From contig JAJYWK010000008.1 of assembly GCA_021791515.1 (NCBI GenBank), forward strand, positions 1 through 41,050: DNA of 41,050 nt, written 5' to 3'. The position numbers were made by a program, and so were the translations under genes. Source of the DNA: a bacterium (GTDB lineage Bacteria > Patescibacteriota > Doudnabacteria > UBA920). The notes under the pieces were generated by a model. The model searched no databases, had not been told where the DNA came from, and saw nothing but the letters and a program-made list of their open reading frames with translations. Of this stretch, positions 2,761 through 39,610 are shown piece by piece. The first letter of the stretch is position 1. Every line of letters starts with the position of its first letter.

Positions 2761-4234
2761 GAGCGGCGAATTGATAGAATTCGGCGACCACCGTTTCCTT
2801 TGGGAAATTTATGACGACCAAAACCCGGTGCTCGTACTGCGCAAAGGGTCGCAAATCGGCGCCAGCACAATGGAAGTCCTGAAAACTTTTCACGCAGCCC
2901 GCTTCTGGGGAATTAACCAGATTTATACCTTACCGACCGTGGATGACGTAGCCGAGTTCGTAAAAAGCAAAGTTAACCGCATCCTGAAAGTTAATCCCTG
3001 CATCAGGCAAGGCGTGAGTTCAAAGGACGTAGATTCCGTTGAGCAAAAACAAATTGGCAAAGCCTTCCTGTTTTTCAAAGGTACCTACACGGAAAAGGAA
3101 GCGATAATGCTGACTTCCGACCGCAACATCCATGACGAGCTGGACAAATCCAAGCCGGAAGTTATTCGGGATTACATGAGCCGCATCGGCTTCTCCAAAA
3201 TACGCAGCCAGCATTACTTCTCCACCCCGACAATCCCAGATGTAGGCGTAGATAAACTATTCGCACAATCAGACCAAAAATACTGGCGCTTTAACTGTCC
3301 GCATTGCAGATACCGCCAGCACATGGAATGGGATAAAAATCTCGACCGGGAACGAAAAATATATGTCTGCCAGAAATGCCGCAAGGAAATTACATCAAGA
3401 CAGGTTTGCGACCTGGGAGAATGGGAAGCAAAATTCCCAAGCGAATCAATAAGCGGTTACTGGATAAACCAGATGATGTGCCCGTGGAGAACTGCGGCCG
3501 ACTTAATCAAGGAAGAGTCCCTGGCAGAAGACACCCAGTATTTTTATAACTTCGTCCTGGGCCTGCCTTACCTCTCAGCCGACCTCCGCATTCCGGCCAG
3601 CCTGTTCCTGAAAAATCTTACTGAAATCAACGCAGCATCCGAAGGAGACAACGTTATGGGAGCGGACACCGGCAACGAAAACCACGTGGTGATAGGAAAC
3701 AAGAAAGGTATATTCTGGATGGGTAAACTTAAAGACCGGCCCAACCGGACCCGCTGGCAACAGATGGCGGAACTCATCCAATTTTACGACATCAGGACTT
3801 GCGTGGTGGATGCCATGCCCTGGACCGAAGAAGCTTTGCTTCTTGCCAAAAAATTCCCTTACCGGGTCTTTGTAAATTTTTATAAGGAAGATCCGAAGAT
3901 GCTGGAAGTCGTCCGCTGGAACGATGATAAAGAAGGCGAAGAAAAAGAATTTGAAGAAGAGGTCAAAGTGCTGACTTCCCGAAACAGAATTATTGACGAC
4001 ACCATATCCTCCTTAAGGCGCGGGGAAATAAAATTCGACATAGAAAAAGACTACCCCGCTTTCCGCTTGCTCATTGATCACGCCCAGACAATGTACTCGC
4101 GCACAGTAACCGACAAACTTGGACAGGAAAAGCGCGAATGGGAATCCACCACCGGCGAAGACCACCTGTGGCACGCATTAATCTATTGGCACATTGCATT
4201 AAAAAAGCGAAATAAATATGAACCCAACCGTTAA
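2687..4234 (+). CDS. terL: Terminase large subunit, lambda gpA-like
   Basis: RKGSQIGAS (gpA-type Walker A), IHDELD (Walker B), FSTPT, CPHC..CQKC zinc finger, MGADTG nuclease Asp, DHLWHA. ATG 2687 preferred over the ORF-track start at 2573. Confidence 0.88.
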   Translation: MNNNGNDPEKKLVTYWVTKNKIKNESGELIEFGDHRFLWEIYDDQNPVLVLRKGSQIGASTMEVLKTFHAARFWGINQIYTLPTVDDVAEFVKSKVNRILKVNPCIRQGVSSKDVDSVEQKQIGKAFLFFKGTYTEKEAIMLTSDRNIHDELDKSKPEVIRDYMSRIGFSKIRSQHYFSTPTIPDVGVDKLFAQSDQKYWRFNCPHCRYRQHMEWDKNLDRERKIYVCQKCRKEITSRQVCDLGEWEAKFPSESISGYWINQMMCPWRTAADLIKEESLAEDTQYFYNFVLGLPYLSADLRIPASLFLKNLTEINAASEGDNVMGADTGNENHVVIGNKKGIFWMGKLKDRPNRTRWQQMAELIQFYDIRTCVVDAMPWTEEALLLAKKFPYRVFVNFYKEDPKMLEVVRWNDDKEGEEKEFEEEVKVLTSRNRIIDDTISSLRRGEIKFDIEKDYPAFRLLIDHAQTMYSRTVTDKLGQEKREWESTTGEDHLWHALIYWHIALKKRNKYEPNR

Positions 4235-4475
4235 AAATTCAACCGGCAGCAACACAAAAAGGTCAAAATTAGTTGAAAAAGAGGTAAGAAAAAAGTTAAG
4301 TCAGGAAGATGAAACCCTGACCCTTGTAGATATTGCAGCTGGCATAGACGAAGTAAAAAAACATGGCTTCGGACGTGTCGTAATTTTTGTGCAAAATGGC
4401 TACATTTACCATTGGGAGTGGACTAAATCCAAGACCAGGAGGAAAGCAAAACGTCATTTGACTTCTTTCCGATAA
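4218..4475 (+). CDS. Small DUF2292/YezD-like protein
   Basis: IDEVKKHGFGRVVIFVQNGYIYHWEWTKS resembles the family pattern G(F/Y)GxVxIxVxxGxIxxxExT. Confidence 0.55.
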   Translation: MNPTVKNSTGSNTKRSKLVEKEVRKKLSQEDETLTLVDIAAGIDEVKKHGFGRVVIFVQNGYIYHWEWTKSKTRRKAKRHLTSFR

Positions 4476-4705
4476 TGGTCAATGCTTTAGACAGGAGCAT
4501 AAAATAATCTTTAACTACGCCGGATTTTGACTAAATGACGGATATATAGTCTGATTAAACTTTAAAAAATTTTAAAGCCATGAAGCCCGCAAATCAAACA
4601 ATTTGGTTTTGCTTAACTACGCCCCGCCAATATTTTACTGCCCATTTAAATTCAGGCCTTTTCGAGGATTCGACAAAGGTCTTTAATTTTTAAAAGAACA
4701 AATTT

Positions 4706-5809
4706 ATGATGGACAACATCCCAAAACGAAAACTTTTTATAGGAGGAGGAATAACCGCAGCCGGAATAATTCTACTCGGAATTGTGTACTGGCTGGGTTT
4801 TACAGCCCCGCAAAAAAACTCCGGTACGGAAAATTTTATCGTGCCTCTCAAGACATCGCAGCAGGATGCAATCAAAATTTTACGGGACAAAGGATTTATA
4901 AAACAGGAGTGGGCATTCAAAATTGTCTGGGATTTGCAAGGCCTTGATGATCGGACTATCCAGCCTGGCGGATATAAAATTTCCAAAAGCGATTCGCCTT
5001 GGAAGATCGCACAGACCCTCGCTTATAAACAAAGCATGAAGTGGGTGGTAATACCCGAAGGCTGGCGCAAGGAGCAGATCGCGGAACTGCTGGCTTCCAC
5101 CTTTGGCTGGGAGAATAAAGTTAAAAATACCTGGGTCAACACTTTAACTTCCATGAAGTATGACTATGTAGAAGGAGTCTACTTCCCGGACACCTATCTG
5201 ATTCCCGTGGACGAAACCCCGCAGCAGATAGCCGAACGAATGCGTCGGAGATTCGATGAACAGTTCGCGCCCTACGCCAAAGAAGCCTTAGACCAGAACA
5301 TTAAATGGACCACAGCCCTAAAGCTTGCCTCAATTGTTCAAAGGGAAGCCGGAGGCAAACAGGACATGCCAATTATTGCCGGCATCTTATGGAACCGCCT
5401 GCTTAAGGACATGAAACTGGAAGTGGACGCTACCGTGCAGTACGCCAGGGATTCCAAGCTGGCTTATGCCGCCGACCCCTGCGAAGATTCCAACAGCGTC
5501 CAGCGCCAGAACGGAAACTGCTACAATCCCGAACTCATGCAAATGTCCGTGCCATATACCGGAATCCAGGACTGGTGGAAACCCATTACTCCGGCCGACA
5601 AAGACCTTGGATCGCTTTACAATACTTACCTTTACAAAGGCCTGCCCCCACACCCCATTGATAATCCCGGCATTGATGCTATTGATGCCGTCCTTCATCC
5701 TGCCCAAACGGAATGCCTTTACTACCTGCACGACAGCAACCGCCAGATTCACTGCGCCAAGACTTACGAAGAACACCAGCAGAATATCAATCAATATTTA
5801 AAAAATTAA
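4706..5809 (+). CDS. mltG: Endolytic transglycosylase MltG (YceG-like)
   Basis: N-terminal TM; VVIPEGW, EGVYFPDTY, LASIVQREA (catalytic Glu), LEVDATVQY, YNTYLYKGLPPHPIDNPG, LYYLHD, TYEEH. Confidence 0.95.
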   Translation: MMDNIPKRKLFIGGGITAAGIILLGIVYWLGFTAPQKNSGTENFIVPLKTSQQDAIKILRDKGFIKQEWAFKIVWDLQGLDDRTIQPGGYKISKSDSPWKIAQTLAYKQSMKWVVIPEGWRKEQIAELLASTFGWENKVKNTWVNTLTSMKYDYVEGVYFPDTYLIPVDETPQQIAERMRRRFDEQFAPYAKEALDQNIKWTTALKLASIVQREAGGKQDMPIIAGILWNRLLKDMKLEVDATVQYARDSKLAYAADPCEDSNSVQRQNGNCYNPELMQMSVPYTGIQDWWKPITPADKDLGSLYNTYLYKGLPPHPIDNPGIDAIDAVLHPAQTECLYYLHDSNRQIHCAKTYEEHQQNINQYLKN

Positions 5810-5833
5810 ATGCCTTGGAGGGGGAAGGAAAAT

Positions 5834-7042
5834 ATGAATAAAAAAATTATCATTCCCGCCATAATCGTTGTGGTTGCTACCGGAGCCGTGGCTTACGCTA
5901 CGCTTTCAAACAAAAACCAATGCGACAAAAATACAATTACCAGCCCAATACACGGGATTCAAACGATGTCAGAACGGGTTCAAAATACGGAAGGAATTGT
6001 CATCGGTACCATTACAGATATCAAACCGACAGCCTGCCGGAAAGATAAAACCGGTGACTACCATATGTACACTGATTATACCCTTTCTATTGAACAAGGG
6101 ATCAAAGGAAGTATTGACCACGATGTTAATCTTCGTCTACCGGGAGGCAGTATGGGTAGCGGAATAAACAAAATATCTGAGATGGTTGAAGATACCCCGG
6201 AACTTGTCAAAGGAGAAAAACTCCTTGCCTTCCTTTCTAAAAACTCTTCAATAGATTTGCCAAATAACAGCTATTCAATCTACGGCGGTGACTTAGGCTC
6301 GTACCAAATCAAAGACGGACAAGCTATTAACTTTGAAGGGTCTGTGGCCTTGGGAGAGCTAATAAACCAGATACAAGCGCCCATGCAGCTGGTAAAGCCA
6401 ACCGCTGAAAAAATGGAAACCGAGAAAGCATCAATCAGGAAATTTATGGGCGACCCGAACCTCGACCTGATTTACAGGACCACCGATAAGAACGCCACCA
6501 ACCTGACCGTAGGCAAAGTCACCAAGCTAAACAGCGGAGGCTGGCAGATGGATACGCCTAAGGAATGGGAACGGCCGGTGGACATTTACCAGCAGACCGC
6601 TTACATGGACAATCGCTGCGAGATTTACGAATACGAATTGGATTCCAGGAACGCCCAGGTTGTGGAAGTTAGAATTATGTATCCGCAGGAACTCCAAGGA
6701 CAGGACTTAATGGCGGCCGAAATTGGAACTAAGTGCGGGTCGCTCCCGTCCCTGGAAACTCCCTTAAAGACCAAAGACCAGATTGAACAGGAAGCCTTTA
6801 AATACTTAGGCCGGGATAATGGCGACATTCTGATTAAATCGAACATCCAGTTTGTCTATACGCCAAGCATGAAGAACCCCAAGAACGCTCCGGCCTTTAA
6901 CGAATGGAAATGGCAGGATAAAAGCTACAAGCTGCCGGAGGGCTTAACCGCGGACGTAGAACCCTATCCGACCGTAAGAATTATCATGAGCAGTAATGGC
7001 AGGCTGGTAAATTATTTTAACTCAAGAGGATTGTTTAACTAA
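5834..7042 (+). CDS. Exported two-domain protein: TIMP/OB-fold-like N-domain plus PepSY-like C-domain
   Basis: Signal/TM MNKKIIIPAIIVVVA. N-half aligns by eye to 10698-11288 and C-half to 8693-9334. Confidence 0.6.
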   Translation: MNKKIIIPAIIVVVATGAVAYATLSNKNQCDKNTITSPIHGIQTMSERVQNTEGIVIGTITDIKPTACRKDKTGDYHMYTDYTLSIEQGIKGSIDHDVNLRLPGGSMGSGINKISEMVEDTPELVKGEKLLAFLSKNSSIDLPNNSYSIYGGDLGSYQIKDGQAINFEGSVALGELINQIQAPMQLVKPTAEKMETEKASIRKFMGDPNLDLIYRTTDKNATNLTVGKVTKLNSGGWQMDTPKEWERPVDIYQQTAYMDNRCEIYEYELDSRNAQVVEVRIMYPQELQGQDLMAAEIGTKCGSLPSLETPLKTKDQIEQEAFKYLGRDNGDILIKSNIQFVYTPSMKNPKNAPAFNEWKWQDKSYKLPEGLTADVEPYPTVRIIMSSNGRLVNYFNSRGLFN

Positions 7043-12577: not shown

Positions 12578-13510
12578 ATGACAACGCGCCAAAAACTTGA
12601 AATTATCCAAAAGTCCTCTGGCCTGACCCAGACCCAGCTGGCCGGGCGTTTTGGCGTATCCTTTGTGGCTTTTAACGGTTGGTGGACAGGAAAAGCTACT
12701 CCAAGGCCAAAGATGCAGGCCGCCATTGACGAGCTATTTTTGGAAGTCACCGGCCAAAAAGTTATTCCTGCTGATTTCCTTACTGCCAAAAAACAGTCCT
12801 TAAAAGAAAAGGCCAAAAGCCACAAGAGTATTGTTACCGAAATTATCCAAAACCCCGACATCCGCGACCAGTTCATGCTTAAGCTTACCTACAACTCCAA
12901 TCGTATGGAAGGTAGTACGCTTAGTGAGCCGGACACTGCCGCCATTCTTTTTGACAATGTTGCCCTCCCGAATAAAAGCCTGACCGAACAACTGGAAGCC
13001 AAAAACCACCAGACCGCCCTGCAATACTTGTTTGACTATGTATCTAAAAACGAACCTCTTAACGAAGATTTGATCCTGAAACTTCACAGCATTCTGATGA
13101 ACGGCGTATATCCTGAAGCCGGATTTTACCGCAGGCATGGCGTCAGGATTACCGGTGTTAATTTAGCTACGGCTAACTATTTAAAATTGCCGGATCTTAT
13201 GCCAGCTCTTGCCAAAGATTTAGGTAAGCCAAATAAAGATATTGTCGCTGCCGCGGCTTCCATCCATGCCCGCTTTGAACACATCCACCCCTTCCCCGAT
13301 GGCAACGGGCGCGTTGGCCGCCTGCTCATGAACGCCATGCTGCTTAAAGACAACTTCCCGCCTGCGGTTATTCGCCAGGAACACAAACGCCTGTACAATA
13401 CCTACCTCTATAAGGCCCAAACCAAAGACGACAACAGCCAGCTGGAAGACTTTATCTGCGACGCGATTTCAGACGGCTTCCGGATATTGGAACGTCAGGA
13501 ACTTAAATAA
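12578..13510 (+). CDS. fic: HTH-Fic family AMPylase with internal inhibitory helix
   Basis: N-terminal HTH (LTQTQLAGRFGVSF); SNRMEG fits (S/T)xxxE(G/N); catalytic HPFPDGNGRVGR. Confidence 0.92.
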   Translation: MTTRQKLEIIQKSSGLTQTQLAGRFGVSFVAFNGWWTGKATPRPKMQAAIDELFLEVTGQKVIPADFLTAKKQSLKEKAKSHKSIVTEIIQNPDIRDQFMLKLTYNSNRMEGSTLSEPDTAAILFDNVALPNKSLTEQLEAKNHQTALQYLFDYVSKNEPLNEDLILKLHSILMNGVYPEAGFYRRHGVRITGVNLATANYLKLPDLMPALAKDLGKPNKDIVAAAASIHARFEHIHPFPDGNGRVGRLLMNAMLLKDNFPPAVIRQEHKRLYNTYLYKAQTKDDNSQLEDFICDAISDGFRILERQELK

Positions 13511-13644: not shown

Positions 13645-14097
13645 TTATCTTTCGCCGTTTAACAATCTCTCAAAGGCTTCGAGATTGCCCAAAGCGTCAT
13701 GAACAGGATTGTGGTCATGCTCGGTAACCCGCAACTTCTTCCAGCTTTGGGTATCCGTAAAATTCCCTACCAAGCCAGCATAGAAGTCGCTAATCCGCCG
13801 CGCGGAATGACCGAAAGGATTAGCTCCTAAAAATAAATGAAAGTAGTAGTTTATGAACTGCCAGTCATAGGCTGGATTGTCGCTCATAAACAGCGGCCGC
13901 CAGCCGGGTACACAGACTTGCTTAATCCAATTGTCAAACTTTGTAAATGTTTCCTTAGTCGCTCCGACCCCGTGAAAAGTAGCCCGACCAGGATAACTCA
14001 CCGCGCCAAATTCAAATAGCTTGTCGTCGTTAAGGGTGGGCGCTGGCCCATGACCTTCGCAGTCAACAAAGATTAAATTTTTTAAATCAGTCTCCAT
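13645..14097 (-). CDS. DEDDh 3'-5' exoribonuclease (Rv2179c/RNase AS-like)
   Basis: IFVDCEGHGP, SDNPAYDWQFINYYF, NPFGHSARRI, HDHNPVHDALGN. Confidence 0.8.
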   Translation of the reverse strand: METDLKNLIFVDCEGHGPAPTLNDDKLFEFGAVSYPGRATFHGVGATKETFTKFDNWIKQVCVPGWRPLFMSDNPAYDWQFINYYFHLFLGANPFGHSARRISDFYAGLVGNFTDTQSWKKLRVTEHDHNPVHDALGNLEAFERLLNGER

Positions 14098-25900: not shown

Positions 25901-27043
25901 TTGACCAGGAACAAAACAAAAACTTTTAAATATTTTAGCGCGTTCAGCGGCATCGGGGGTTTTGAAGTCGGGGTACAACAAGCCTATGGAACGATGGGAC
26001 AACTACAACAAAAGGTTCAGCAAACCGCTAGTTGCCGGAACGCTGAAAGCAAGCGGAGCAGATCCCAATGTATTGGTTTTTCGGAAATTGACAAGTATGC
26101 AATCCAAATCTACCGATCGCATTTCCCCACTCATAAAAATTATGGCGACATTACCAAAATTAAAGCCGAAGAACTGCCGGACTTTGAATTCTTCTGCGGC
26201 GGATTCCCGTGCCAGTCTTTTTCGATTGCTGGAAAACGTGCGGGATTTAACGATACCCGAGGTACGCTCTTTTTTGACCTCGCGCGGATTGCTAAAGAAA
26301 AAAGACCGAAATATCTTTTATTTGAAAATGTTAAAGGACTGTTATCTCACGACCGCGGACGAACTTTTAAAACCATACTGTCCGCCCTTACGGAACTTGG
26401 TTATAACCTCCAAGCGATGGTACTTAACAGCAAGAATTTCGGAGTCCCACAGAATCGGGAAAGAGTGTTCATTGTCGGAAATCTTGGAACGGCGGCCAGA
26501 CCGGAAGTATTTCCTTTCACCGGAAAAAACCAGGACGATAATGAAGCAGCTGCGGCTAACGCCATTGACGCCAACTATTTCAAAGGCGCAGACAACCACG
26601 GCCAGCGTACGCAAATTGCCCATACGCCGGCGCTCCGGGCTTCGGACGCAAAGCGCGGTGATAATCAAACGCTAGTGGTGGAAGACTTTTATCCCGGCAG
26701 AATCAGGACATTCAGCAAGGCGCCGACACTGCGAAGCGGCAGGGCGGGAATAAAAATCGGCACGCTAAGGAGCTATAAACACGGACGGGGTTTTCGCGAA
26801 ATCAAGCAGGGCATATCGCCAACGCTGCCCGCCCGCGCGCGGAATGACGGCACAGGCTCGCCCGTGCTTTACCACAAACTGGCCGTTCGCCGCCTGACGC
26901 CCGTAGAGTGCGAAAGGTTGCAGGGCTTCCCGGACGGCTGGACCGGAAACGTAAGCGATACCCAGCGCTACAAAACTTTGGGTAATGCAGTTACGGTTAA
27001 CGTCATAAGAGAAATTATTAAAAGGATAAAGCATTATGTTTAG
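25901..27043 (+). CDS. dcm: DNA (cytosine-5)-methyltransferase
   Basis: FSGIGG, GGFPCQSFS, FENVKG, PQNRERVFIVG, RRLTPVECERLQGFPD, LGNAV. Confidence 0.93.
   Translation: MTRNKTKTFKYFSAFSGIGGFEVGVQQAYGTMGQLQQKVQQTASCRNAESKRSRSQCIGFSEIDKYAIQIYRSHFPTHKNYGDITKIKAEELPDFEFFCGGFPCQSFSIAGKRAGFNDTRGTLFFDLARIAKEKRPKYLLFENVKGLLSHDRGRTFKTILSALTELGYNLQAMVLNSKNFGVPQNRERVFIVGNLGTAARPEVFPFTGKNQDDNEAAAANAIDANYFKGADNHGQRTQIAHTPALRASDAKRGDNQTLVVEDFYPGRIRTFSKAPTLRSGRAGIKIGTLRSYKHGRGFREIKQGISPTLPARARNDGTGSPVLYHKLAVRRLTPVECERLQGFPDGWTGNVSDTQRYKTLGNAVTVNVIREIIKRIKHYV
25962..26675 (+). CDS. Alternative-frame ORF nested in dcm (possible M.EcoHK31I-beta-like subunit); true start uncertain
   Basis: 237 codons open in the +1 frame, containing LTARISESHRIGKECSLSEILERRPDRKYFLSPEK. 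Confidence 0.45.
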   Translation: MKSGYNKPMERWDNYNKRFSKPLVAGTLKASGADPNVLVFRKLTSMQSKSTDRISPLIKIMATLPKLKPKNCRTLNSSAADSRASLFRLLENVRDLTIPEVRSFLTSRGLLKKKDRNIFYLKMLKDCYLTTADELLKPYCPPLRNLVITSKRWYLTARISESHRIGKECSLSEILERRPDRKYFLSPEKTRTIMKQLRLTPLTPTISKAQTTTASVRKLPIRRRSGLRTQSAVIIKR

Positions 27044-32494: not shown

Positions 32495-32677
32495 ATGCCG
32501 AAAATTCCAAAGTATGAACAGGGTGGCAAACAGATTTATCAGCAGGCAAAAAAATGCCGTAATTATAAGGATTTTGAGAAATTTATTCATAGCGTTCGTA
32601 TGTTAACTTCAATTAAAATTAGTTGCAACTCCGACTTGTCCACTGACGCATTAGTAATCCATGTCAACGGATTTTAA
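32495..32677 (+). CDS. Hypothetical small protein
   Basis: 60 aa; overlaps the next gene's start. Confidence 0.35.
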   Translation: MPKIPKYEQGGKQIYQQAKKCRNYKDFEKFIHSVRMLTSIKISCNSDLSTDALVIHVNGF

Positions 32678-33968
32678 AAACAAAATACTTTTGGGTGATG
32701 CCAGAGATTTGTTAAAACAACTGCCGGACGAAAGCATAGACTGCTGCATTACTTCGCCACCTTACTGGGGACTTCGCGATTACGGAACCAAGCCGCTGGT
32801 ATGGGACGGCGATCCGTCCTGCCCGCATGAATGGCAAACCGGAAAACAAAAATGGCATTCAGACCGCGGGTCAAACAAAAGAAAAGAAATATTCGACAGA
32901 AGCTTCCAGACAAAAGGTACCTTATCTGACCGCTGTAAAAAATGCGGCGCCTGGCGCGGATCGCTTGGGCAGGAACCCAATATGGATCTGTTTATAAAGC
33001 ACCTGTGCGGCATTTTTGATGAAATAAAAAGGGTTTTAAAAAAGACGGGAACCTGTTGGGTCAATCTTGGCGACACTTACCAGGGCAGTCCGGTCAGCGG
33101 TAAAGAAGGCGGATTCTCCGGCCGGGCGGCAAGAAATAATCCCGATTATGCCAAAGCCATAATCGTAAAGAACAGGCCAAAAAGCGGACTGCCGGACAAG
33201 TGTCTGTGCCAGATCCCCTCAAAGTTCGCCCTTGAAATGGTCGCACGCGGCTGGATACTCCGGAACGAAATAATCTGGCGCAAGCCCAATGCCATGCCGT
33301 CCAGCGCCAGGGACAGGTTTACGGTGGACTTTGAAAAAATGTTCTTTTTCGTAAAATCCGGCCGGTATTATTTTGAACAACAGCTGGAAGATGCGAACAC
33401 CGGTGAAAATATTTACCGCCAGAAGCTTCGTTCCGGCAAAACCTACAACATAAAATATCCGGGCTACCAAAATAATTTTCCGATTCCGCGGCCAGACGGC
33501 AAAAGGAATATGCGATCAGTCTGGTCCATAACTACCAAGCCCTGCAAGGAAGCCCACTTCGCCGTGTTTCCCGAGAACTTGGCCAAGATACCCATACAGT
33601 CCGGGTGTCCGGAATTCATTTGCCGGTCTTGTGGCAGACCAAGAACTAAATTGTTTAAAAAAATAGAAATCGGTAAAGAATATAGTTGCACAAAATACAA
33701 CACTAAAAAATCAACGGCCGGCAGTCTCGCACAAAAACGCCAGGCATACCGGAAAATGGGTTTTGAAAATCCGCCTGCGCCGGAGTTTGTTGGCTACAGC
33801 GACTGCGGGTGCGGCGCGGAATTCAATCGCGGCATAGTTCTGGACCCGTTCATGGGAGCCGGTACGACCGCACTGGTCGCCAAAAAACTCGGCCGCGATT
33901 ACCTCGGAATGGAATTGAACCCGGCTTACGTTAAAATCGCCGAAAAGAGAATAAAAACTCATCATTAA
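32661..33968 (+). CDS. DNA N4-cytosine/N6 methyltransferase (beta class) with Cys-rich insertions
   Basis: ITSPPYWGLRDY, IIWRKPNAMP, HFAVFP, VLDPFMGAGTT, ELNPAY; CPH..CKKC and CRSC..CGC inserts. Confidence 0.92.
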   Translation: MSTDFKNKILLGDARDLLKQLPDESIDCCITSPPYWGLRDYGTKPLVWDGDPSCPHEWQTGKQKWHSDRGSNKRKEIFDRSFQTKGTLSDRCKKCGAWRGSLGQEPNMDLFIKHLCGIFDEIKRVLKKTGTCWVNLGDTYQGSPVSGKEGGFSGRAARNNPDYAKAIIVKNRPKSGLPDKCLCQIPSKFALEMVARGWILRNEIIWRKPNAMPSSARDRFTVDFEKMFFFVKSGRYYFEQQLEDANTGENIYRQKLRSGKTYNIKYPGYQNNFPIPRPDGKRNMRSVWSITTKPCKEAHFAVFPENLAKIPIQSGCPEFICRSCGRPRTKLFKKIEIGKEYSCTKYNTKKSTAGSLAQKRQAYRKMGFENPPAPEFVGYSDCGCGAEFNRGIVLDPFMGAGTTALVAKKLGRDYLGMELNPAYVKIAEKRIKTHH

Positions 33969-33978
33969 TCATATCGGC

Positions 33979-34206
33979 ATGGACAACAAGGAATACCAAA
34001 ATTGCATGCAGGACAAAAGACTGGACGGACTGGAACAATCCGTCAATGAGATAAAAAATAACCACCTGCCGCACCTGCTGCAAAAACTTACCAAAACCAG
34101 CACTGACGTTGACTGGCTAAAACGGTTTTTCTGGATCGTGGCTACGGCTAGCATTGGCGGGCTGATTACGGCATTACTTAATCTATTAATATCAATTAAC
34201 AAATAA
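33979..34206 (+). CDS. Holin-like protein (XhlA-like, one C-terminal TM)
   Basis: IKNNHLPHL..DVDWLKRFFWIVATASIGGLI; precedes the endolysin. Confidence 0.6.
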   Translation: MDNKEYQNCMQDKRLDGLEQSVNEIKNNHLPHLLQKLTKTSTDVDWLKRFFWIVATASIGGLITALLNLLISINK

Positions 34207-34209
34207 ACT

Positions 34210-34788
34210 ATGCCAAACTCTATTTGGAAAGGCTCGCCGAACTTCTGGGCCGGACGGGAGGGTCACAAACCGCAGGGAATCGTTATCCATATTATGGCCG
34301 GAACGCTGATCGGCACTGACAGCTGGTTTAACAACCCTAAATCACAAGTAAGCGCTCACTATGGTATTGGGAAAAACGGCGAAATTCACCAGTACGTAAA
34401 AGAAGAAGATTCGGCCTGGCAGGCAGGGACTGTTTCAAACCCCAGTACTCTGCTGGTTAAACCCGGCATTAATCCCAATCTGTATACCATTGGCATTGAA
34501 CACGAAGGGTCGGAAAGTGATGTCTGGACCGAAGAAATGAAAAACGCAAGCGCAGCCTTGATCAAAGACATTTGCATGCGTTGGAGTATTCCGATTGATC
34601 GCAACCACATAATCGGCCACTACCAGATCACCAGCAAAAAACCCAACTGTCCGGCAATAAACAAAAGCATCATAGACGAACTGGTAGCCAGGGCGGCTTT
34701 GCAGCAGGCACCCTCTCCTTCGCTGGTCGAGGAAGGAATAAAGAAAATTGAGGAAGGGCTTGCAATAATTAAGAACAACATTAAATAA
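34210..34788 (+). CDS. Endolysin, N-acetylmuramoyl-L-alanine amidase
   Basis: IVIHIMAG, VSAHYGI, AWQAG, TIGIEHEG, IIGHYQI, NCP. Confidence 0.9.
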   Translation: MPNSIWKGSPNFWAGREGHKPQGIVIHIMAGTLIGTDSWFNNPKSQVSAHYGIGKNGEIHQYVKEEDSAWQAGTVSNPSTLLVKPGINPNLYTIGIEHEGSESDVWTEEMKNASAALIKDICMRWSIPIDRNHIIGHYQITSKKPNCPAINKSIIDELVARAALQQAPSPSLVEEGIKKIEEGLAIIKNNIK

Positions 34789-34789
34789 T

Positions 34790-34966
34790 ATGACCATATT
34801 CAAATCAGCCAGCAAAATAGTGTTCATCTTGATGGCCTTGGCTACCGTAGGCGCGCTATTTGTCGGTAAAATTACCGGCGAACAATTCCTTGTCCTGACC
34901 GGCATGGCGTTCTCGTTCTACTTTTCCAGCAAAGGCGATGCCACTCAACCATACGCAGGAAAATAA
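34790..34966 (+). CDS. Small two-TM holin (58 aa, absent from the ORF track)
   Basis: MTIFKSASKIVFILMALATVGALFVGKITGEQFLVLTGMAFSFYFSSKGDATQPYAGK; starts 1 nt after the endolysin stop. Confidence 0.75.
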   Translation: MTIFKSASKIVFILMALATVGALFVGKITGEQFLVLTGMAFSFYFSSKGDATQPYAGK

Positions 34967-35033
34967 TAAACGCGCTGGTATACATGAGGAAAAAGTGTTA
35001 AAATAAAGGCAAATTAGAGTCATCCATAATACC

Positions 35034-36674
35034 ATGACTGACGTATTAACAGTCGCCCAACGATCATATAATATGTCTAAAATCCGGTCTACCGAAACCG
35101 GGCCGGAAATTCTGCTTCGGAACCTGCTTATTTCAAGAGGTCTGTCCGATTTTGAAACTCAACCGAAAACGATTTTTGGTAAACCGGATTTTTATTTCTA
35201 TAACCGGAAATCAGCTATTTTTGTTGACGGCTGTTTTTGGCACGGTTGCAAAACCTGCTTTCATGCACCGCAGACAAATAAAAAATTTTGGAGTTCAAAA
35301 ATAAAATCAAACATTATACGGGATAATAATGTTAATAAAACTTTGGCAAATGGCGGAATAGAAGTCATCAGGGTTAAGGAGCATGAACTGAAACAGAATC
35401 CGGATGATGTCGTAAAAAAAATTGAAGGCAAATTACCACCCGATAATCGTCCAAAAGTATTGGATCTGTTCGCCGGAGCGGGAGGACTTTCAGAGGGCTT
35501 TATTCAGGCTGGTTGCGAAATCGTCAGTCACATAGAAGCCGACAAAAAAGCCTGTAGCACTCTTGTAACGCGCATGGTATACCATGCGCTTAAAAAGAAA
35601 AATCGGCTTGACGATTATAAAAATTACGTTCTTGGCAAAACCACACGCGATGCGATTATTAAAAAGCACGGGCTTCAAAACGCGGAGAGTTCTGTAATAT
35701 ACGAAAAGATTGGCGAAAATAACTATCAGGATCTGATTACAAAGGTAAAAGAACGCCTGAACGGGGCAAGGCTCGACATTATCGTCGGCGGCCCTCCCTG
35801 CCAGGCCTACTCTCATATAGGCCGGGCCCGTGACGATCAGAACATGCGCCGGGATGAGCGTAACTTTCTTTACCGGTATTATGTTGAATTCCTTAAAGCC
35901 CTGCAACCAAAAGTATTTGTTTTTGAAAATGTACCCGGTCTTGAAGATGCTGGTAAAGGTAAGTACCTGCGGGATATGCGTGGCCTTATGAAGAAAGCGG
36001 GCTACACTACTGACTATAAAATTTTGAATGCCGTTAACTATGGCGTTCCCCAGAACAGAAAAAGAATTATTCTGGTAGGATGGAATAAAGATTCCGGCCT
36101 CAGTGGCTATCCTGATTTCCCGGAAGTCAAACGCGAATATCTTGTTAAAGATTTTTTTACCGGATTGCCAAATATTAAAGCGGGTAAGGACAGGCCAGCC
36201 GGAGTATTTTCCGTGCAAAATGACCTTTTGGAAAAACTTGGTATTACTAATCCGCAGGTTGGTATCCTTATGGATCATGTTTCCCGGCCTCATATAAAAA
36301 GAGATTTGGCAATTTACAGACGTGCCGTGTTGTTAAAGCAGCAAGGAAAAAATTTGAAATACAATAACCTTCCAAAATATTTAAAAACACACACCAATGA
36401 GGAAGGGTTTTTGGACAGATTTAAAGTGGTTGATGCCGATGCCCGGGGTTCTCATACTGTTGTTGCACACATAGCAAAAGACGGTCATTATTATATTCAT
36501 CCGGACATCAGGCAAAACCGGTCTTTGACTGTCAGGGAGGCTGCTAGGCTGCAAACATTCCCCGATGACTATAAATTTGAAGGGGAAATAGGCCCCCGGT
36601 TTAAACAGATCGGCAACGCCGTGCCGCCATTATTCGCAAAAATAATTGCTTCAACAATACTCCAGTATTTTTAA
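35034..36674 (+). CDS. dcm: Vsr very-short-patch endonuclease fused to DNA (cytosine-5)-methyltransferase
   Basis: QRSYNMSKIRS..PE..GKPDF..FVDGCFWHGC..FWSSKI..N..RD (Vsr), then DLFAGAGG, GGPPCQ, FENVPG, PQNRKR, TVREAARLQTFPD, GNAVPP in one frame. Confidence 0.92.
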   Translation: MTDVLTVAQRSYNMSKIRSTETGPEILLRNLLISRGLSDFETQPKTIFGKPDFYFYNRKSAIFVDGCFWHGCKTCFHAPQTNKKFWSSKIKSNIIRDNNVNKTLANGGIEVIRVKEHELKQNPDDVVKKIEGKLPPDNRPKVLDLFAGAGGLSEGFIQAGCEIVSHIEADKKACSTLVTRMVYHALKKKNRLDDYKNYVLGKTTRDAIIKKHGLQNAESSVIYEKIGENNYQDLITKVKERLNGARLDIIVGGPPCQAYSHIGRARDDQNMRRDERNFLYRYYVEFLKALQPKVFVFENVPGLEDAGKGKYLRDMRGLMKKAGYTTDYKILNAVNYGVPQNRKRIILVGWNKDSGLSGYPDFPEVKREYLVKDFFTGLPNIKAGKDRPAGVFSVQNDLLEKLGITNPQVGILMDHVSRPHIKRDLAIYRRAVLLKQQGKNLKYNNLPKYLKTHTNEEGFLDRFKVVDADARGSHTVVAHIAKDGHYYIHPDIRQNRSLTVREAARLQTFPDDYKFEGEIGPRFKQIGNAVPPLFAKIIASTILQYF

Positions 36675-36681
36675 TAACCAT

Positions 36682-38436
36682 ATGCGCAATCCTCAGGATC
36701 AAAAAAATTTACAGGAAACCAGCATAGAGCCGCTACGTTTTGACGTCAGCGGTAACTTAATCAGAAAATTTGGCCGCGAGTCTATCTCCAATAAAAATGT
36801 AGCCATACTGGAGCTTATCAAAAATTCTTACGATGCTGGAGCGGCAAAGATGGAGATAGATTTTTCTTCTGTCAACACAAAAGACGCTTTAATTTCTGTA
36901 TCTGACAATGGGGACGGAATGGATTATCAGGATCTGAAAAATAAATGGATGCGCATTGCAAGTCAGTTTAAATCGAAAAAACTTAAAAATGGCGACAGAA
37001 CTTTTATCGGGGAAAAAGGCATTGGGAGGCTCTCGGCCGAAAGTCTGGGTAAAATAGCAACTCTATTTTCTTTCCCGAAAGGAAAGGATACGGGATATAA
37101 GGTCATTTTTGACTGGAATAAATACCAGGATGAGAACGTGCTGGTCAATGATGTTGATAATCCAACTTCACAAATAAAAAAGAAAAAATCCGATCACGGA
37201 TTAAGGCTGGAAATTAAAGACCTTAATCATGACTGGAATATGCAGGAAGCTCAAATCGAACTTCTGGCGGATGTTGGTATTCTTAATCCACCCAATAAAC
37301 CAGTCAGGGATTTTAAAGTATCGGCTAAATTCACGCCTTCTCTGATGGCCGCCCCGAAAATAAAAAAGGAGTTTCTAGGAAAGGCCGTATACAGCCTTAA
37401 AACCAGACTTACTGGAGGCAGTCTGATACGTTATGAATTTTCTTCAATTAAAGGAAAAAAGAAAGAAGGGAACCGTACAACAGATCGTAAACTTAAATGC
37501 GGGGATGCGGTTTTTGAACTTTATTTCTATTATAAGTCCCCAAAGTATTTTGAGCAGGCTGTCGGGAAAAAAATCAGTGCGATTGATTCAAAAGAAATTT
37601 CAAAAACGCTTGAACATTTTAGCGGCATCAAACTCTACAGAGATAATTTTAGGGTCAAACCGTATGGCGACCCCAAAAGTGACTGGATCGGCTTGGACAT
37701 TGCGGCCCACAATAACAGTATGTATCCGAGAAATGACGCTATTTTTGGAATGGTTCACATAAGCAAGTCAAAAAATCCGGCGATTGTTGATACCACCACA
37801 AGGGAAGGAGTTATATTCACTGACGAATTTCAGGACCTGATTGCATTTGTCCAGACTTCTATTTTTGGAATATTTGCGGACTTGCGGAGCGAATTTGAGT
37901 CGCATAAAACCAAAGCCAGAAAAAAGAAAAACGGTGCAAAAAACAAGACCCCGATTCACGTGGTAGTTCCAGTGCCTACAGCAAGCCCCCAGCCTCCCGA
38001 CACACTGGTTGAAATTGGCGGTAAGTATCCAGAAAACTTTTATAATCAGCTTCAGGATGAAATAAATATTTGTTTTGAACACAACCATCCAAACGCGGCT
38101 TTTTTCCTCTGTCGGAAGATGATAGAAAACCTTGTGTTTAATATTCTTGAAAAGAAATTTTCCACCCATGTGGATCTGTGGTATGACCAAAAAAGAAAAA
38201 TACGCCACAAGTTTAGTGTTTTAATCCAGAATCTCTATGCGGAGAGGACTAATTTTGGTAAGCCAAACATTAAAACCTATATAGAAAAGTTTAACAATGA
38301 GGTCGGACCGTTCAGGAAAGAGGCTAACACCAAGGCCCATTATGTATTTGAATATCTGGCCGACAAAAAAGAACTTGGCAAATTTAAAATCAAGGACTTG
38401 GTGCAGCTACTGGCAAAAATTTATGACAACATTTAA
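36682..38436 (+). CDS. GHKL (MORC/HATPase_c_3-like) ATPase with C-terminal DUF4145/HEPN-like domain
   Basis: ELIKNSYDAGA, DNGDGM, GEKGIGRL, GIKLYRDNFRVKPYG..DWIGLD, TTREG; C-terminal NAAFFLCRKMIE..FRKEANTKAH. Confidence 0.8.
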   Translation: MRNPQDQKNLQETSIEPLRFDVSGNLIRKFGRESISNKNVAILELIKNSYDAGAAKMEIDFSSVNTKDALISVSDNGDGMDYQDLKNKWMRIASQFKSKKLKNGDRTFIGEKGIGRLSAESLGKIATLFSFPKGKDTGYKVIFDWNKYQDENVLVNDVDNPTSQIKKKKSDHGLRLEIKDLNHDWNMQEAQIELLADVGILNPPNKPVRDFKVSAKFTPSLMAAPKIKKEFLGKAVYSLKTRLTGGSLIRYEFSSIKGKKKEGNRTTDRKLKCGDAVFELYFYYKSPKYFEQAVGKKISAIDSKEISKTLEHFSGIKLYRDNFRVKPYGDPKSDWIGLDIAAHNNSMYPRNDAIFGMVHISKSKNPAIVDTTTREGVIFTDEFQDLIAFVQTSIFGIFADLRSEFESHKTKARKKKNGAKNKTPIHVVVPVPTASPQPPDTLVEIGGKYPENFYNQLQDEINICFEHNHPNAAFFLCRKMIENLVFNILEKKFSTHVDLWYDQKRKIRHKFSVLIQNLYAERTNFGKPNIKTYIEKFNNEVGPFRKEANTKAHYVFEYLADKKELGKFKIKDLVQLLAKIYDNI

Positions 38437-38453
38437 ATATTTTTACTTTGCCG

Positions 38454-39107
38454 TTACCTCCAGGGATCAAACGCCAGTCCCAACCTGACCCTAATAAAGC
38501 CAATAAGGTTCAAAGAATTTTTTATTAAACTATACAGCCAGTCTGATCTCAACCCAAATAAATGAATGTGAATATAGTTGTTCGGAAATGGTTGTATGTT
38601 GTGTTCCTTTAAAAACAAAACTTCTTTTGCTCGTTTTGGATTACCGCTTGAAGCCATAACACCCGTAGCGATAGCACGCTCCGGAATACCAACAAAATTC
38701 AAACCGTAGAATGAATAATTTGTTTCTTTTAAAGGATGTGGGTCAATAGTGATATAAAAGTTTTTTCCTCCTACCACCATTGAACCGTCAGGTTGCCATT
38801 GACCGTAAAAATACCCAACCCCCAACAAGGAATCACTTTCGTATTGATCCAAGTTAAAATATTTACGAAAAAATTTAAACAGGCCACCGGAGGGTACATA
38901 GCCAATTTTTTTTAGTTCCGCGCTCATGTATTCCTTTTTACCGGCATCAATAATCAGATCAAAATCACCTAGCTTCCGATGTAATTTCCTATTCATCGAA
39001 GCCATAACCACCGAACCTAAAATTCTGTATTTAACTCCCCCGGATTTTAAAATATTTAGAAGCTGTTTTAAAGTTGCCAAAACGACTTCGTTATTAAAGT
39101 CAGACAT
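38454..39107 (-). CDS. Nucleotidyltransferase-fold protein
   Basis: YRILGSVVMAS..HRKLGDFDLIID (GS..DxD, Pol-beta superfamily). Confidence 0.65.
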   Translation of the reverse strand: MSDFNNEVVLATLKQLLNILKSGGVKYRILGSVVMASMNRKLHRKLGDFDLIIDAGKKEYMSAELKKIGYVPSGGLFKFFRKYFNLDQYESDSLLGVGYFYGQWQPDGSMVVGGKNFYITIDPHPLKETNYSFYGLNFVGIPERAIATGVMASSGNPKRAKEVLFLKEHNIQPFPNNYIHIHLFGLRSDWLYSLIKNSLNLIGFIRVRLGLAFDPWR

Positions 39108-39533: not shown

Positions 39534-39610
39534 AAACCAGCCTTTCTGTATGTATTTTACACGATTGGATTTTTTCCCGCCACAGAGTATAATTCAAACA
39601 AGGCTTGAGC

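Follow-up and report, generated by a model that had tools for sequence, protein, structure and literature searches.

Two adjacent genes at 35034-38436 of a 41,050-nt stretch of DNA (the window), which is one whole contig (JAJYWK010000008.1) of a 1.17-Mb, 97.7%-complete Doudnabacteria genome (GCA_021791515.1), form a real, intact, and conserved module. The first encodes a fusion of a very-short-patch T:G mismatch endonuclease (Vsr) with a C5 cytosine DNA methyltransferase (Dcm), and the second encodes a GHKL-type ATPase that ends in a domain predicted to adopt the HEPN fold. The explanation that we favor, at a little short of an even chance, is that the pair acts as a methylation-gated sensor-effector in which an ATPase clamp would sense unmethylated DNA and switch on a HEPN RNase. 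The architecture class to which it belongs is already in print, and what appears to be new is the occurrence of this particular C-terminal family on a Dcm-linked paraMORC chassis.

The first gene, an open reading frame (ORF) at 35034-36674 on the plus strand, is one intact Vsr-C5 methyltransferase frame of 546 aa, and the second, at 36682-38436 (+), encodes 584 aa counted from its ATG. Direct reading of the sequence placed the TAA stop of Vsr-Dcm at 36672-36674 and the ATG of the ATPase-HEPN gene at 36682, with the 7-nt spacer TAACCAT between them (36675-36681, +), confirming the coordinates and spacing given in an initial annotation of this DNA; the two genes were read as one operon. An alternative TTG start at 36646 would add 12 residues to the ATPase-HEPN protein, and the ATG start is common to 31/31 homologues in alignment A1. 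A promoter and terminator scan returned no more sites than were found in shuffled sequence. The ATPase-HEPN protein is laid out as a HATPase_c_3 domain, a long conserved middle region, a variable Lys/Pro-rich linker, and a conserved C-terminal domain of ~145 aa. The linker (aa 406-440; 37897-38001, +), which is gapped, variable, and poorly conserved in alignment A1, has the sequence HKTKARKKKNGAKNKTPIHVVVPVPTASPQPPDT and precedes AAFFLCRKMIE (aa 472-482) and RKEANTKAH (aa 545-553), as had been described. Pfam and PADLOC searches detected no restriction endonuclease, receiver, second histidine kinase domain, or Z1 gene among the neighbors or the 42 window ORFs, in line with the earlier statement that no restriction endonuclease, histidine-kinase/receiver, or Z1 gene is adjacent.

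Both parts of the fusion are well supported by family models. The Vsr domain (aa 1-135; 35034-35438, +) matched PF03852 (E 7.5e-25) and passed TIGR00632 (112.7 bits against a cut-off of 97.85), with aa 1-118 aligned to a profile of 119 positions. The motif region PD...VDGCFWHGC...C is readable in this part and presumably holds its catalytic and zinc residues. The C5 methyltransferase domain (aa 136-546 plus the stop codon; 35439-36674, +) matched PF00145 (E 7e-62) and TIGR00675 (188.6 bits against a cut-off of 100.65), and its motifs F146/G148/G150, P255-C256, E298-N299-V300, Q340/R342/R344, and G527-N528 are invariant in alignment A5 of 29 partner methylases. PADLOC recognized it with DrmMII (PDLC02649, E 8.7e-158) and with MTase_II models. 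A DISARM system, which would combine DrmMII with drmA, drmB, and drmC/E, was considered and rejected, as no PADLOC Drm model besides DrmMII matched any of the 42 window ORFs.

The N-terminal 405 aa of the second protein (36682-37896, +) are predicted to form a complete MORC-like module, consisting of a GHKL Bergerat fold and an S5-like transducer, of the paraMORC type in the sense of the relevant passages of Iyer et al. 2008 (PMC2292703). The GHKL domain (HATPase_c_3; PF13589, E 6.9e-22) spans aa 39-162, and the Bergerat motifs ExxxNxxD, DxGxG, and GxxGxG are all present. The ATP-binding residues E44, N48, D51, D75, G77, G79, G110, G113, and R116 are invariant in a 38-sequence alignment, G115 is invariant across the 32 sequences of alignment A1, and K112 is also an invariant position. 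An AlphaFold2 model of residues 1-415, built from the 38-sequence alignment (predicted local distance difference test [pLDDT] score, 85.6), was compared over residues 23-403 using VIA-align. MORC3 (5ix1; Z 20.5, 294 residues aligned) was the top match, bearing out the MORC-like assignment in the initial annotation, followed by SMCHD1 (19.3), MORC2 (18.7), GRP94 (18.1), Topo VI-B (16.7), and MutL (16.5), and a Foldseek search with the same model agreed (MORC3, E 2.6e-13). A nuclease hidden in the middle region was rejected because residues 23-403 all superpose on MORC/MutL ATPase modules; the GHKL and S5 parts fill the N-terminal 405 aa and therefore leave no space for one. No PD-(D/E)xK, HNH, or similar domain was detected in the protein by Pfam or structure comparison, and no DUF4263 by Pfam.

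The C-terminal domain (aa 441-584 plus the stop codon; 38002-38436, +) was modeled with AlphaFold2 from 45 sequences (pLDDT 90.5) as four helices (H1, 16-29; H2, 33-55; H3, 91-116; H4, 125-145) with an insert at 56-90 between the second and third. HEPN proteins led the VIA-align comparison, with Roquin at Z 10.9, the AF_0298 HEPN protein at 10.2, Csm6 at 9.3, and the sacsin HEPN domain at 9.2; lower rows included GlnE, YutE, RnlA, HEPN-MNT toxins, HI0074, AbiA, MtlR, HepS, LsoA, and DrrA. The PDB title or the text of the HEPN survey (PMC3710099) identifies 20 of the 29 highest-ranking rows (Z 7.1-10.9) as HEPN. From rank 30 on, the list consists of rhodopsins and other bundles. Most of the other rows among the top 29 are, we assume, HEPN proteins as well.

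The conserved residues of this domain tell a consistent story. Its family signature, RKxxEN together with [RK]x3Nx3H, was derived from 146 representatives, so that the RxxxNxxxH pattern noticed in the single sequence proved to be a feature of the family. R478, K479, and E482 are invariant and N483 nearly so, all of them in helix 2, and E482, within R-K-x-x-E-N, is invariant in alignments A1 and A2 and present in 141/146 representatives. At the end of helix 3 lies [R/K]545-x3-N549-x3-H553, in which H553 closes the helix; the His is kept in 145/146 representatives (the remaining one has a gap), preceded by N or D at -4 and by R or K at -8. R545, N549, and H553 follow each other at intervals of one helical turn and should lie on a common face of the helix. 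Passages of the HEPN survey (PMC3710099) place the catalytic His and an acidic residue of HEPN domains at corresponding positions, and the fact that the conserved residues fall at HEPN positions in helices 2 and 3 provides support for the fold that is independent of the structural comparison. The HEPN Rx4-6H motif at the end of helix 3 does not occur here, the window protein having Ala in place of the canonical Arg. Since accepted HEPN families that also lack the Arg are noted in the survey (PMC3710099, in the passages concerned), the fold assignment stands and canonical catalytic status does not. The domain is best modeled as adopting a HEPN fold whose polar site is strongly conserved but non-canonical, and RNase activity is plausible for it.

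The initial annotation had called this C-terminus DUF4145/HEPN-like, and the HEPN part of that description held in the model and in VIA-align, with neither a DUF4145 match nor the canonical Rx4-6H Arg to go with it. DUF5677 (PF18928) scored just below its gathering threshold of 27.1 bits (23.9 bits with the whole protein, 26.8 bits with the domain alone) and was matched by 16/45 members of the C-terminal domain family at E<=1. Neither DUF4145 (PF13643) nor Hypoth_Ymh (PF09509) appeared among the first 25 of the 38 families matched by the 45 C-terminal domains at that cut-off.

A survey of co-occurrence, which the initial annotation had proposed, bore out the pairing. Loci were gathered via the ATPase protein only and comprised 80 genome, 1 viral-contig, and 80 metagenome loci; the middle domain was found in 160 of these and the window-type C-terminal domain in 56. 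The 56 loci collapsed into 43 clusters at 95% identity, of which 6 with less than 900 nt of upstream sequence were left unjudged and 37 were assessable. Dcm lies immediately upstream of the ATPase gene on the same strand in 27/37 clusters, immediately downstream on the same strand in 3/37, and within 3 kb in another arrangement in 5/37; none was seen in 2/37, namely L004 (with a truncated gene) and L014. Dcm is therefore directly adjacent on the same strand in 30 of the 37 assessable relatives and present in some arrangement in 35. Vsr is fused to Dcm in 9 clusters, separate in 14, and not seen in the short flanks of the other 14, which is not to be read as absence. Hosts include Patescibacteria, DPANN and Thaumarchaeota archaea, Ignavibacteria, Zixibacteria, Saccharibacteria, Muribaculaceae, and Aminicenantes. 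A total of 1160 matches to the GHKL protein at E<=1e-3, together with the recurrence of the pair across phyla, puts the association beyond chance.

Apart from Dcm and Vsr, no gene is conserved among the neighbors of these relatives, and no conserved restriction endonuclease was found there. Their variable neighbors include HinP1I and type III restriction-modification (R-M) genes, SIR2-TPR, a receiver-PglZ (RR-PglZ) protein, and a Pycsar-type effector. A scan of viral contigs yielded a single locus, and tblastn searches against cultured-phage and plasmid records gave partial matches only (59-67% of the query; 2 phage and 103 plasmid records), none of which reached into the C-terminal domain. 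An HhH-GPD glycosylase gene was also observed in L013, L017, L021, and L081, at loci where others have Vsr; it adjoins Dcm in L013 and sits just downstream of the ATPase gene in L017. This suggests that the glycosylase is an alternative means of repairing 5-methylcytosine (m5C) deamination in those modules.

Comparison with sister proteins indicated that the C-terminus behaves as an exchangeable output. Sisters that are 58-63% identical over the first three quarters of the protein end in Hypoth_Ymh instead (68.8 bits in L090, 65.5 bits in L115); these (L090, L115, and the P0046 group) carry the canonical R-D-x3-H and also have a Vsr-Dcm fusion directly upstream. An hhalign comparison of the window-type C-terminal domain with the Ymh sisters gave a probability of 0.2, with no similarity past the junction. 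More distant members (L016 and L018) have DUF4145 above threshold at the C-terminus, and in L021-L026 (27-36% identity) the output is a second HATPase_c, of the kinase type, with a receiver gene after it and Dcm and Vsr as neighbors; the latter correspond to the two-component-like systems described in passages of PMC8011034. Members with Ymh, DUF4145, and kinase-type outputs all adjoin Dcm and Vsr. One Dcm-linked ATPase chassis is accordingly joined either to one of three different HEPN-superfamily domains or to a phosphorelay as its output. Such swapping fits a sensor with modular effectors and fits a repair factor, or a domain that serves dimerization only, poorly.

On this basis, we infer DNA clamping, methylation reading, RNase activity, and a role in defense. 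Dcm would mark self DNA with m5C, and the fused Vsr would repair the T:G mismatches that arise from m5C deamination, limiting the mutagenic cost. By analogy with MORC, MutL, and Hsp90 clamps, the MORC-type ATPase would dimerize and close around DNA in an ATP-dependent manner, loading on DNA that lacks cognate m5C, whether this DNA has entered as a phage or plasmid or is the host's own chromosome once the module has been lost. An ATP-driven change would then join two HEPN domains into an active dimer that cuts RNA (tRNA, rRNA, or mRNA), so that translation stops and either the infection is aborted or post-segregational arrest ensues; the same logic would render the prophage that carries the module addictive. 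The narrower proposition that the MORC-like clamp reads the cytosine-methylation state directly and turns the presence of unmethylated DNA into RNA cleavage by HEPN, or, in sister clades, into a histidine-kinase/receiver relay, is possible but rather doubtful. If true, the module would amount to a minimal epigenetic sensor in prokaryotes whose outputs can be exchanged, restricting by translation arrest without a DNA endonuclease and built on the chassis that is the presumed ancestor of eukaryotic MORCs. With one methylase gene, one ATPase-effector gene, and no endonuclease, it is about the smallest version possible, and this minimality offers an uncluttered setting in which to ask whether DNA methylation is read by a MORC-type clamp and how the fused effector is switched on.

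Several observations weigh against a methylation-gated sensor-effector. The reading of methylation by the ATPase is itself putative, as is the mechanism put forward in the initial annotation, in which unmodified DNA or inhibition of the methyltransferase would be sensed and an RNase would be the output. As to the fold, the VIA-align tool warns that helical bundles easily reach Z 7-11 by chance, and a Foldseek search with the C-terminal model, a check that the initial annotation had suggested, returned nothing at E<=1e-3 against the PDB, the HEPN matches having come from VIA-align instead; Foldseek against viral predicted structures likewise gave nothing at E<=1e-3, and a profile of the domain found only chance-level matches among PDB sequences (best E 0.04). 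In 146/146 representatives, position -5 from the His is occupied by A, V, G, S, T, or I and never by R, and without this canonical HEPN Arg the case for RNase activity is weaker than in the Ymh-type sisters. The PADLOC check suggested earlier returned models for the methyltransferase (DrmMII) and for the GHKL part (REase_II), but none for the whole ATPase-HEPN protein, as no model extends past its GHKL part. Full-text literature searches found no experiment on any paraMORC-HEPN protein, and the five ORFs reported to be protective in Enterococcus (relevant passages of PMC12632615) did not include the stand-alone DUF5677 gene that was tested there. Lastly, the viral contig L081 carries a convergent operon (3457-5844, -) of Dcm, HhH-GPD glycosylase, and an EcoRII-C-type endonuclease beside a window-type ATPase-HEPN gene; since that Dcm has its own endonuclease, the ATPase-HEPN gene might also serve as a backup to an ordinary R-M system.

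The L081 arrangement, in which a complete Dcm, glycosylase, and EcoRII-C operon stands beside the gene, would suit a PrrC-like guard as well. The ATPase-HEPN protein would then be kept silent by binding to the methyltransferase, or to an R-M complex, and would unleash its RNase once the methyltransferase is inhibited or displaced by an anti-restriction protein of a phage, sensing a protein and not DNA. Anantharaman et al. 2013, in the passages of their HEPN survey concerned (PMC3710099), proposed this for Ymh-paraMORC fusions, which they regarded as PrrC/RloC analogues, and the tight gene coupling (7-nt spacing in the window, direct adjacency in 30/37 relatives) is consistent with it. We nevertheless consider a guard unlikely, given that a phage inhibitor would find no restriction enzyme to act on in the window and in most relatives and that MORC-type clamps are DNA-handling machines.

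It is improbable that the second gene is a repair helper, that is, a MutL-like ATPase acting as a surrogate MutL that stimulates the fused Vsr, with the HEPN-fold domain being merely a constitutive dimerization domain. A functional interaction between MutL and Vsr is known from E. coli (work cited in a passage of PMC2292703), HEPN domains act as dimers according to passages of the Tiamat preprint, and the 97.7%-complete host genome has no MutL above the TIGR00585 cut-off, weak matches being confined to the ATPase-HEPN gene and one other GHKL gene. Yet Vsr was unseen in the fetched flanks of 14/37 relatives, compared with Dcm seen in 35/37, and the invariant constellation of R, K, E, N, and H exceeds the needs of a dimer interface. 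In sister proteins, a canonical Ymh of the RNase type or a kinase output takes the place of this domain, and the gene is patchy and located in defense islands.

The names and models attached to GHKL proteins raise the prospect of an unorthodox ATP-dependent restriction enzyme, which would cut unmethylated DNA via the C-terminal domain or the partner Vsr nuclease. REBASE-style names for GHKL "restriction enzymes" (HgiDII/BbrUII, NmeAIP) imply as much, R.HgiDII is described in a passage of PMC2441816 as a GHKL protein with an unassigned C-terminus, and both the NCBIfam BbrUII/HgiDII model and the PADLOC REase_II models match the N-terminal part of our protein. These matches are nonetheless confined to the GHKL region: NF050001 scored 68.8 bits against a cut-off of 550 and covered profile positions 2-176 of 659, and the REase_II models matched aa 27-140 only. 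The remainder is predicted to be an S5 transducer and a HEPN fold, characterized HEPN nucleases are metal-independent RNases in the passages of the survey that deal with them (PMC3710099), and no DNase fold was detected, so we hold out little hope for this explanation. That the two genes have no functional link, Vsr-Dcm being just another phage anti-restriction methylase next to an unrelated ATPase gene on a prophage with three other DNA methylase genes, is highly improbable in view of the 7-nt coupling and an adjacency kept across bacterial and archaeal phyla (30/37).

Returning to the sensor-effector model, parts of it have precedents among known systems. The initial annotation was upheld in its domain identities, in the lack of an endonuclease, and in the position of the module at a phage lysis end; the novelty that it implied was not, since GHKL/paraMORC proteins with a C-terminal HEPN domain (Hypoth_Ymh) next to Dcm/Vsr have already been described, and the Ymh sisters stand behind a Vsr-Dcm fusion. 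GHKL proteins with a Hypoth_Ymh C-terminus were listed as putative restriction endonucleases, including R.NmeAIP, by Orlowski and Bujnicki 2008 (PMC2441816, in the passages concerned), and paraMORCs in Dcm/Vsr operons were predicted in 2008 to be R-M components (passages of PMC2292703). Our protein shares with the paraMORC-Ymh fusions the GHKL+S5 chassis, the Dcm or Vsr-Dcm directly upstream, and a HEPN-superfamily domain at the same junction, but its C-terminal domain has no Ymh profile similarity, lacks the canonical R-[DN]-x3-H, and bears its own signature, RKxxEN plus [RK]x3Nx3H. The literature searches found no description of this C-terminal family on a paraMORC chassis, although supplementary files, which they did not cover, could list members.

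For a paraMORC chassis that drives a fused nuclease in defense, VcSduA (formerly paraMORC3; Shedu type) serves as the experimental precedent, as it protects against phage (passages of PMC12137116); this nuclease-fused type is the only experimentally tested paraMORC member that we found in the literature passages available. Like our protein, VcSduA has a paraMORC-type ATPase whose clamp-like middle domain is proposed to control the fused C-terminal nuclease; unlike it, VcSduA is a single gene with a DUF4263 PD-(D/E)xK DNase and no obligate methylase, the effector in the window being a predicted HEPN fold. The HEF_HK/Response_reg_2 paraMORC systems (Bellieny-Rabelo et al. 2021) have a related chassis and Dcm and Vsr neighbors, but they use a second kinase-type HATPase_c and a separate receiver gene in place of a fused HEPN domain without a receiver gene. 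PrrC and RloC anticodon nucleases, to which the HEPN survey (PMC3710099) drew the functional comparison, resemble the module in having an ATPase fused to a C-terminal HEPN nuclease and a genetic tie to DNA modification genes; their ATPase is of the ABC type and their partner a type I R-M system, whereas the window has a GHKL/MORC ATPase and a lone C5 methylase, which makes the analogy one of possible function and not of family. R.HgiDII/BbrUII share the N-terminal GHKL domain and the C5-methylase partner, but the C-terminal parts are unrelated and only the GHKL region matches. E. coli likewise combines a cytosine methylase (Dcm) with a Vsr nuclease and an ATPase of the MutL family that work on the same lesions, yet there these are three genes and not one module and MutL carries no HEPN domain, whereas the window Vsr is fused to Dcm and its ATPase is MORC-like. 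A type II R-M system would place an endonuclease beside the methylase, and neither Pfam nor PADLOC detected such a nuclease family in the window ORFs.

The C-terminal domain extends well beyond this chassis. A profile search across 1.84 billion representatives (cut-off, E<=1e-3) retrieved 579 proteins (cluster representatives) that carry it, and the best 150 of these are mostly 200-350 aa long, with the domain at the C-terminus after an unannotated N-terminal part. In a Pfam scan of 42 sampled relatives, 35 had no Pfam family at E<=1e-3; AbiJ N-terminal domain 5 preceded the C-terminal domain above the Pfam cut-off in 2/42, one showed a sub-threshold AbiJ_NTD3 match, and one had weak DUF4145 and DUF5677 matches overlapping on a single stretch. 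In abortive-infection proteins, HEPN effectors classically come with N-terminal domains of the AbiJ type (passages of PMC3710099), and the combination of such domains with this C-terminal domain is an abortive-infection architecture. This is a sizeable family of predicted HEPN fold, largely missed by Pfam and with a shifted active-site signature, and it bears on how far HEPN catalysis tolerates the loss of the canonical arginine. A stand-alone DUF5677 protein was also observed in L024 (2676-3482, +; 31.5 bits, above threshold), ~400 nt upstream of a kinase-type paraMORC gene and with Dcm and Vsr nearby.

The module sits at the lysis end of a prophage. The phage part occupies bases 1 to ~34966 and includes a terminase, a portal, a 1337-aa protein, an amidase, and several methylases. 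Its lysis end (34210-34966, +) consists of an Amidase_2 lysin at 34210-34788 (Pfam, E 7e-28) and a small membrane-type ORF at 34790-34966. Besides the lysin, two small membrane-type ORFs in all were seen upstream of the module. The metagenome contig L082 (5786 nt) is collinear with 34192-38439 at 79% nt identity through the lysin, small membrane ORF, Vsr-Dcm, and ATPase (90% aa identity). As the collinearity runs through both lysin and module, the module and the lysis end of the phage seem to move together, in support of the moron-like position that the initial annotation had proposed. The bactofilin gene of L082, which comes after the ATPase-HEPN gene as it does in the window, shows only a 72% nt match, the compared span reaching window position 39575. 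The Vsr-Dcm of L082 appears to be split into two frames (858-1151 and 1167-2498), and a 217-aa window ORF at 38454-39107 (-), with no family match, is without a counterpart there. G+C content falls from 0.46-0.51 at 28-35 kb to 0.40-0.42 at the module. The right end of the window is taken to be host DNA because its DUF305 gene occurs in 13/40 relatives. The ATPase-HEPN gene was found in 0/40 relatives searched, which gave three weak GHKL-only matches; its distribution is patchy, and close relatives of its protein are labeled Patescibacteria. A direct-repeat search for attachment sites found short imperfect repeats only, and no tRNA genes were found in the window.

Other genes of the prophage and host deserve brief mention. 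Including Vsr-Dcm, four methylases are encoded on one 35-kb phage; the other three, all on the plus strand, are a ParB-fused N6/N4-type methyltransferase (866-2140), a C5 methyltransferase amid structural genes (25901-27043; PF00145, E 6e-85), and an N6_N4 methyltransferase just ahead of the lysis genes (32661-33968). The 1337-aa phage protein (28430-32443, +) is encoded ahead of the methylase and lysis genes, and its only matches are to PHROGs without an assigned function (phrog_9854, E 3.5e-58). A 310-aa helix-turn-helix and Fic-like protein is encoded at 12578-13510 (+; PADLOC PDC-S04, E 5.6e-40; SoFic, E 4.3e-29), and a 150-aa ORF beside it at 13645-14097 (-) matched an "Exonuclease" effector model (E 7.5e-21); the Fic-like gene and this adjacent minus-strand ORF may be a second defense cargo in the phage. 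Elsewhere in the host genome, a second GHKL (HATPase_c_3) protein of 525 aa is encoded on another contig (locus L175, 1420-2997, +), downstream of a TrmB-type regulator.

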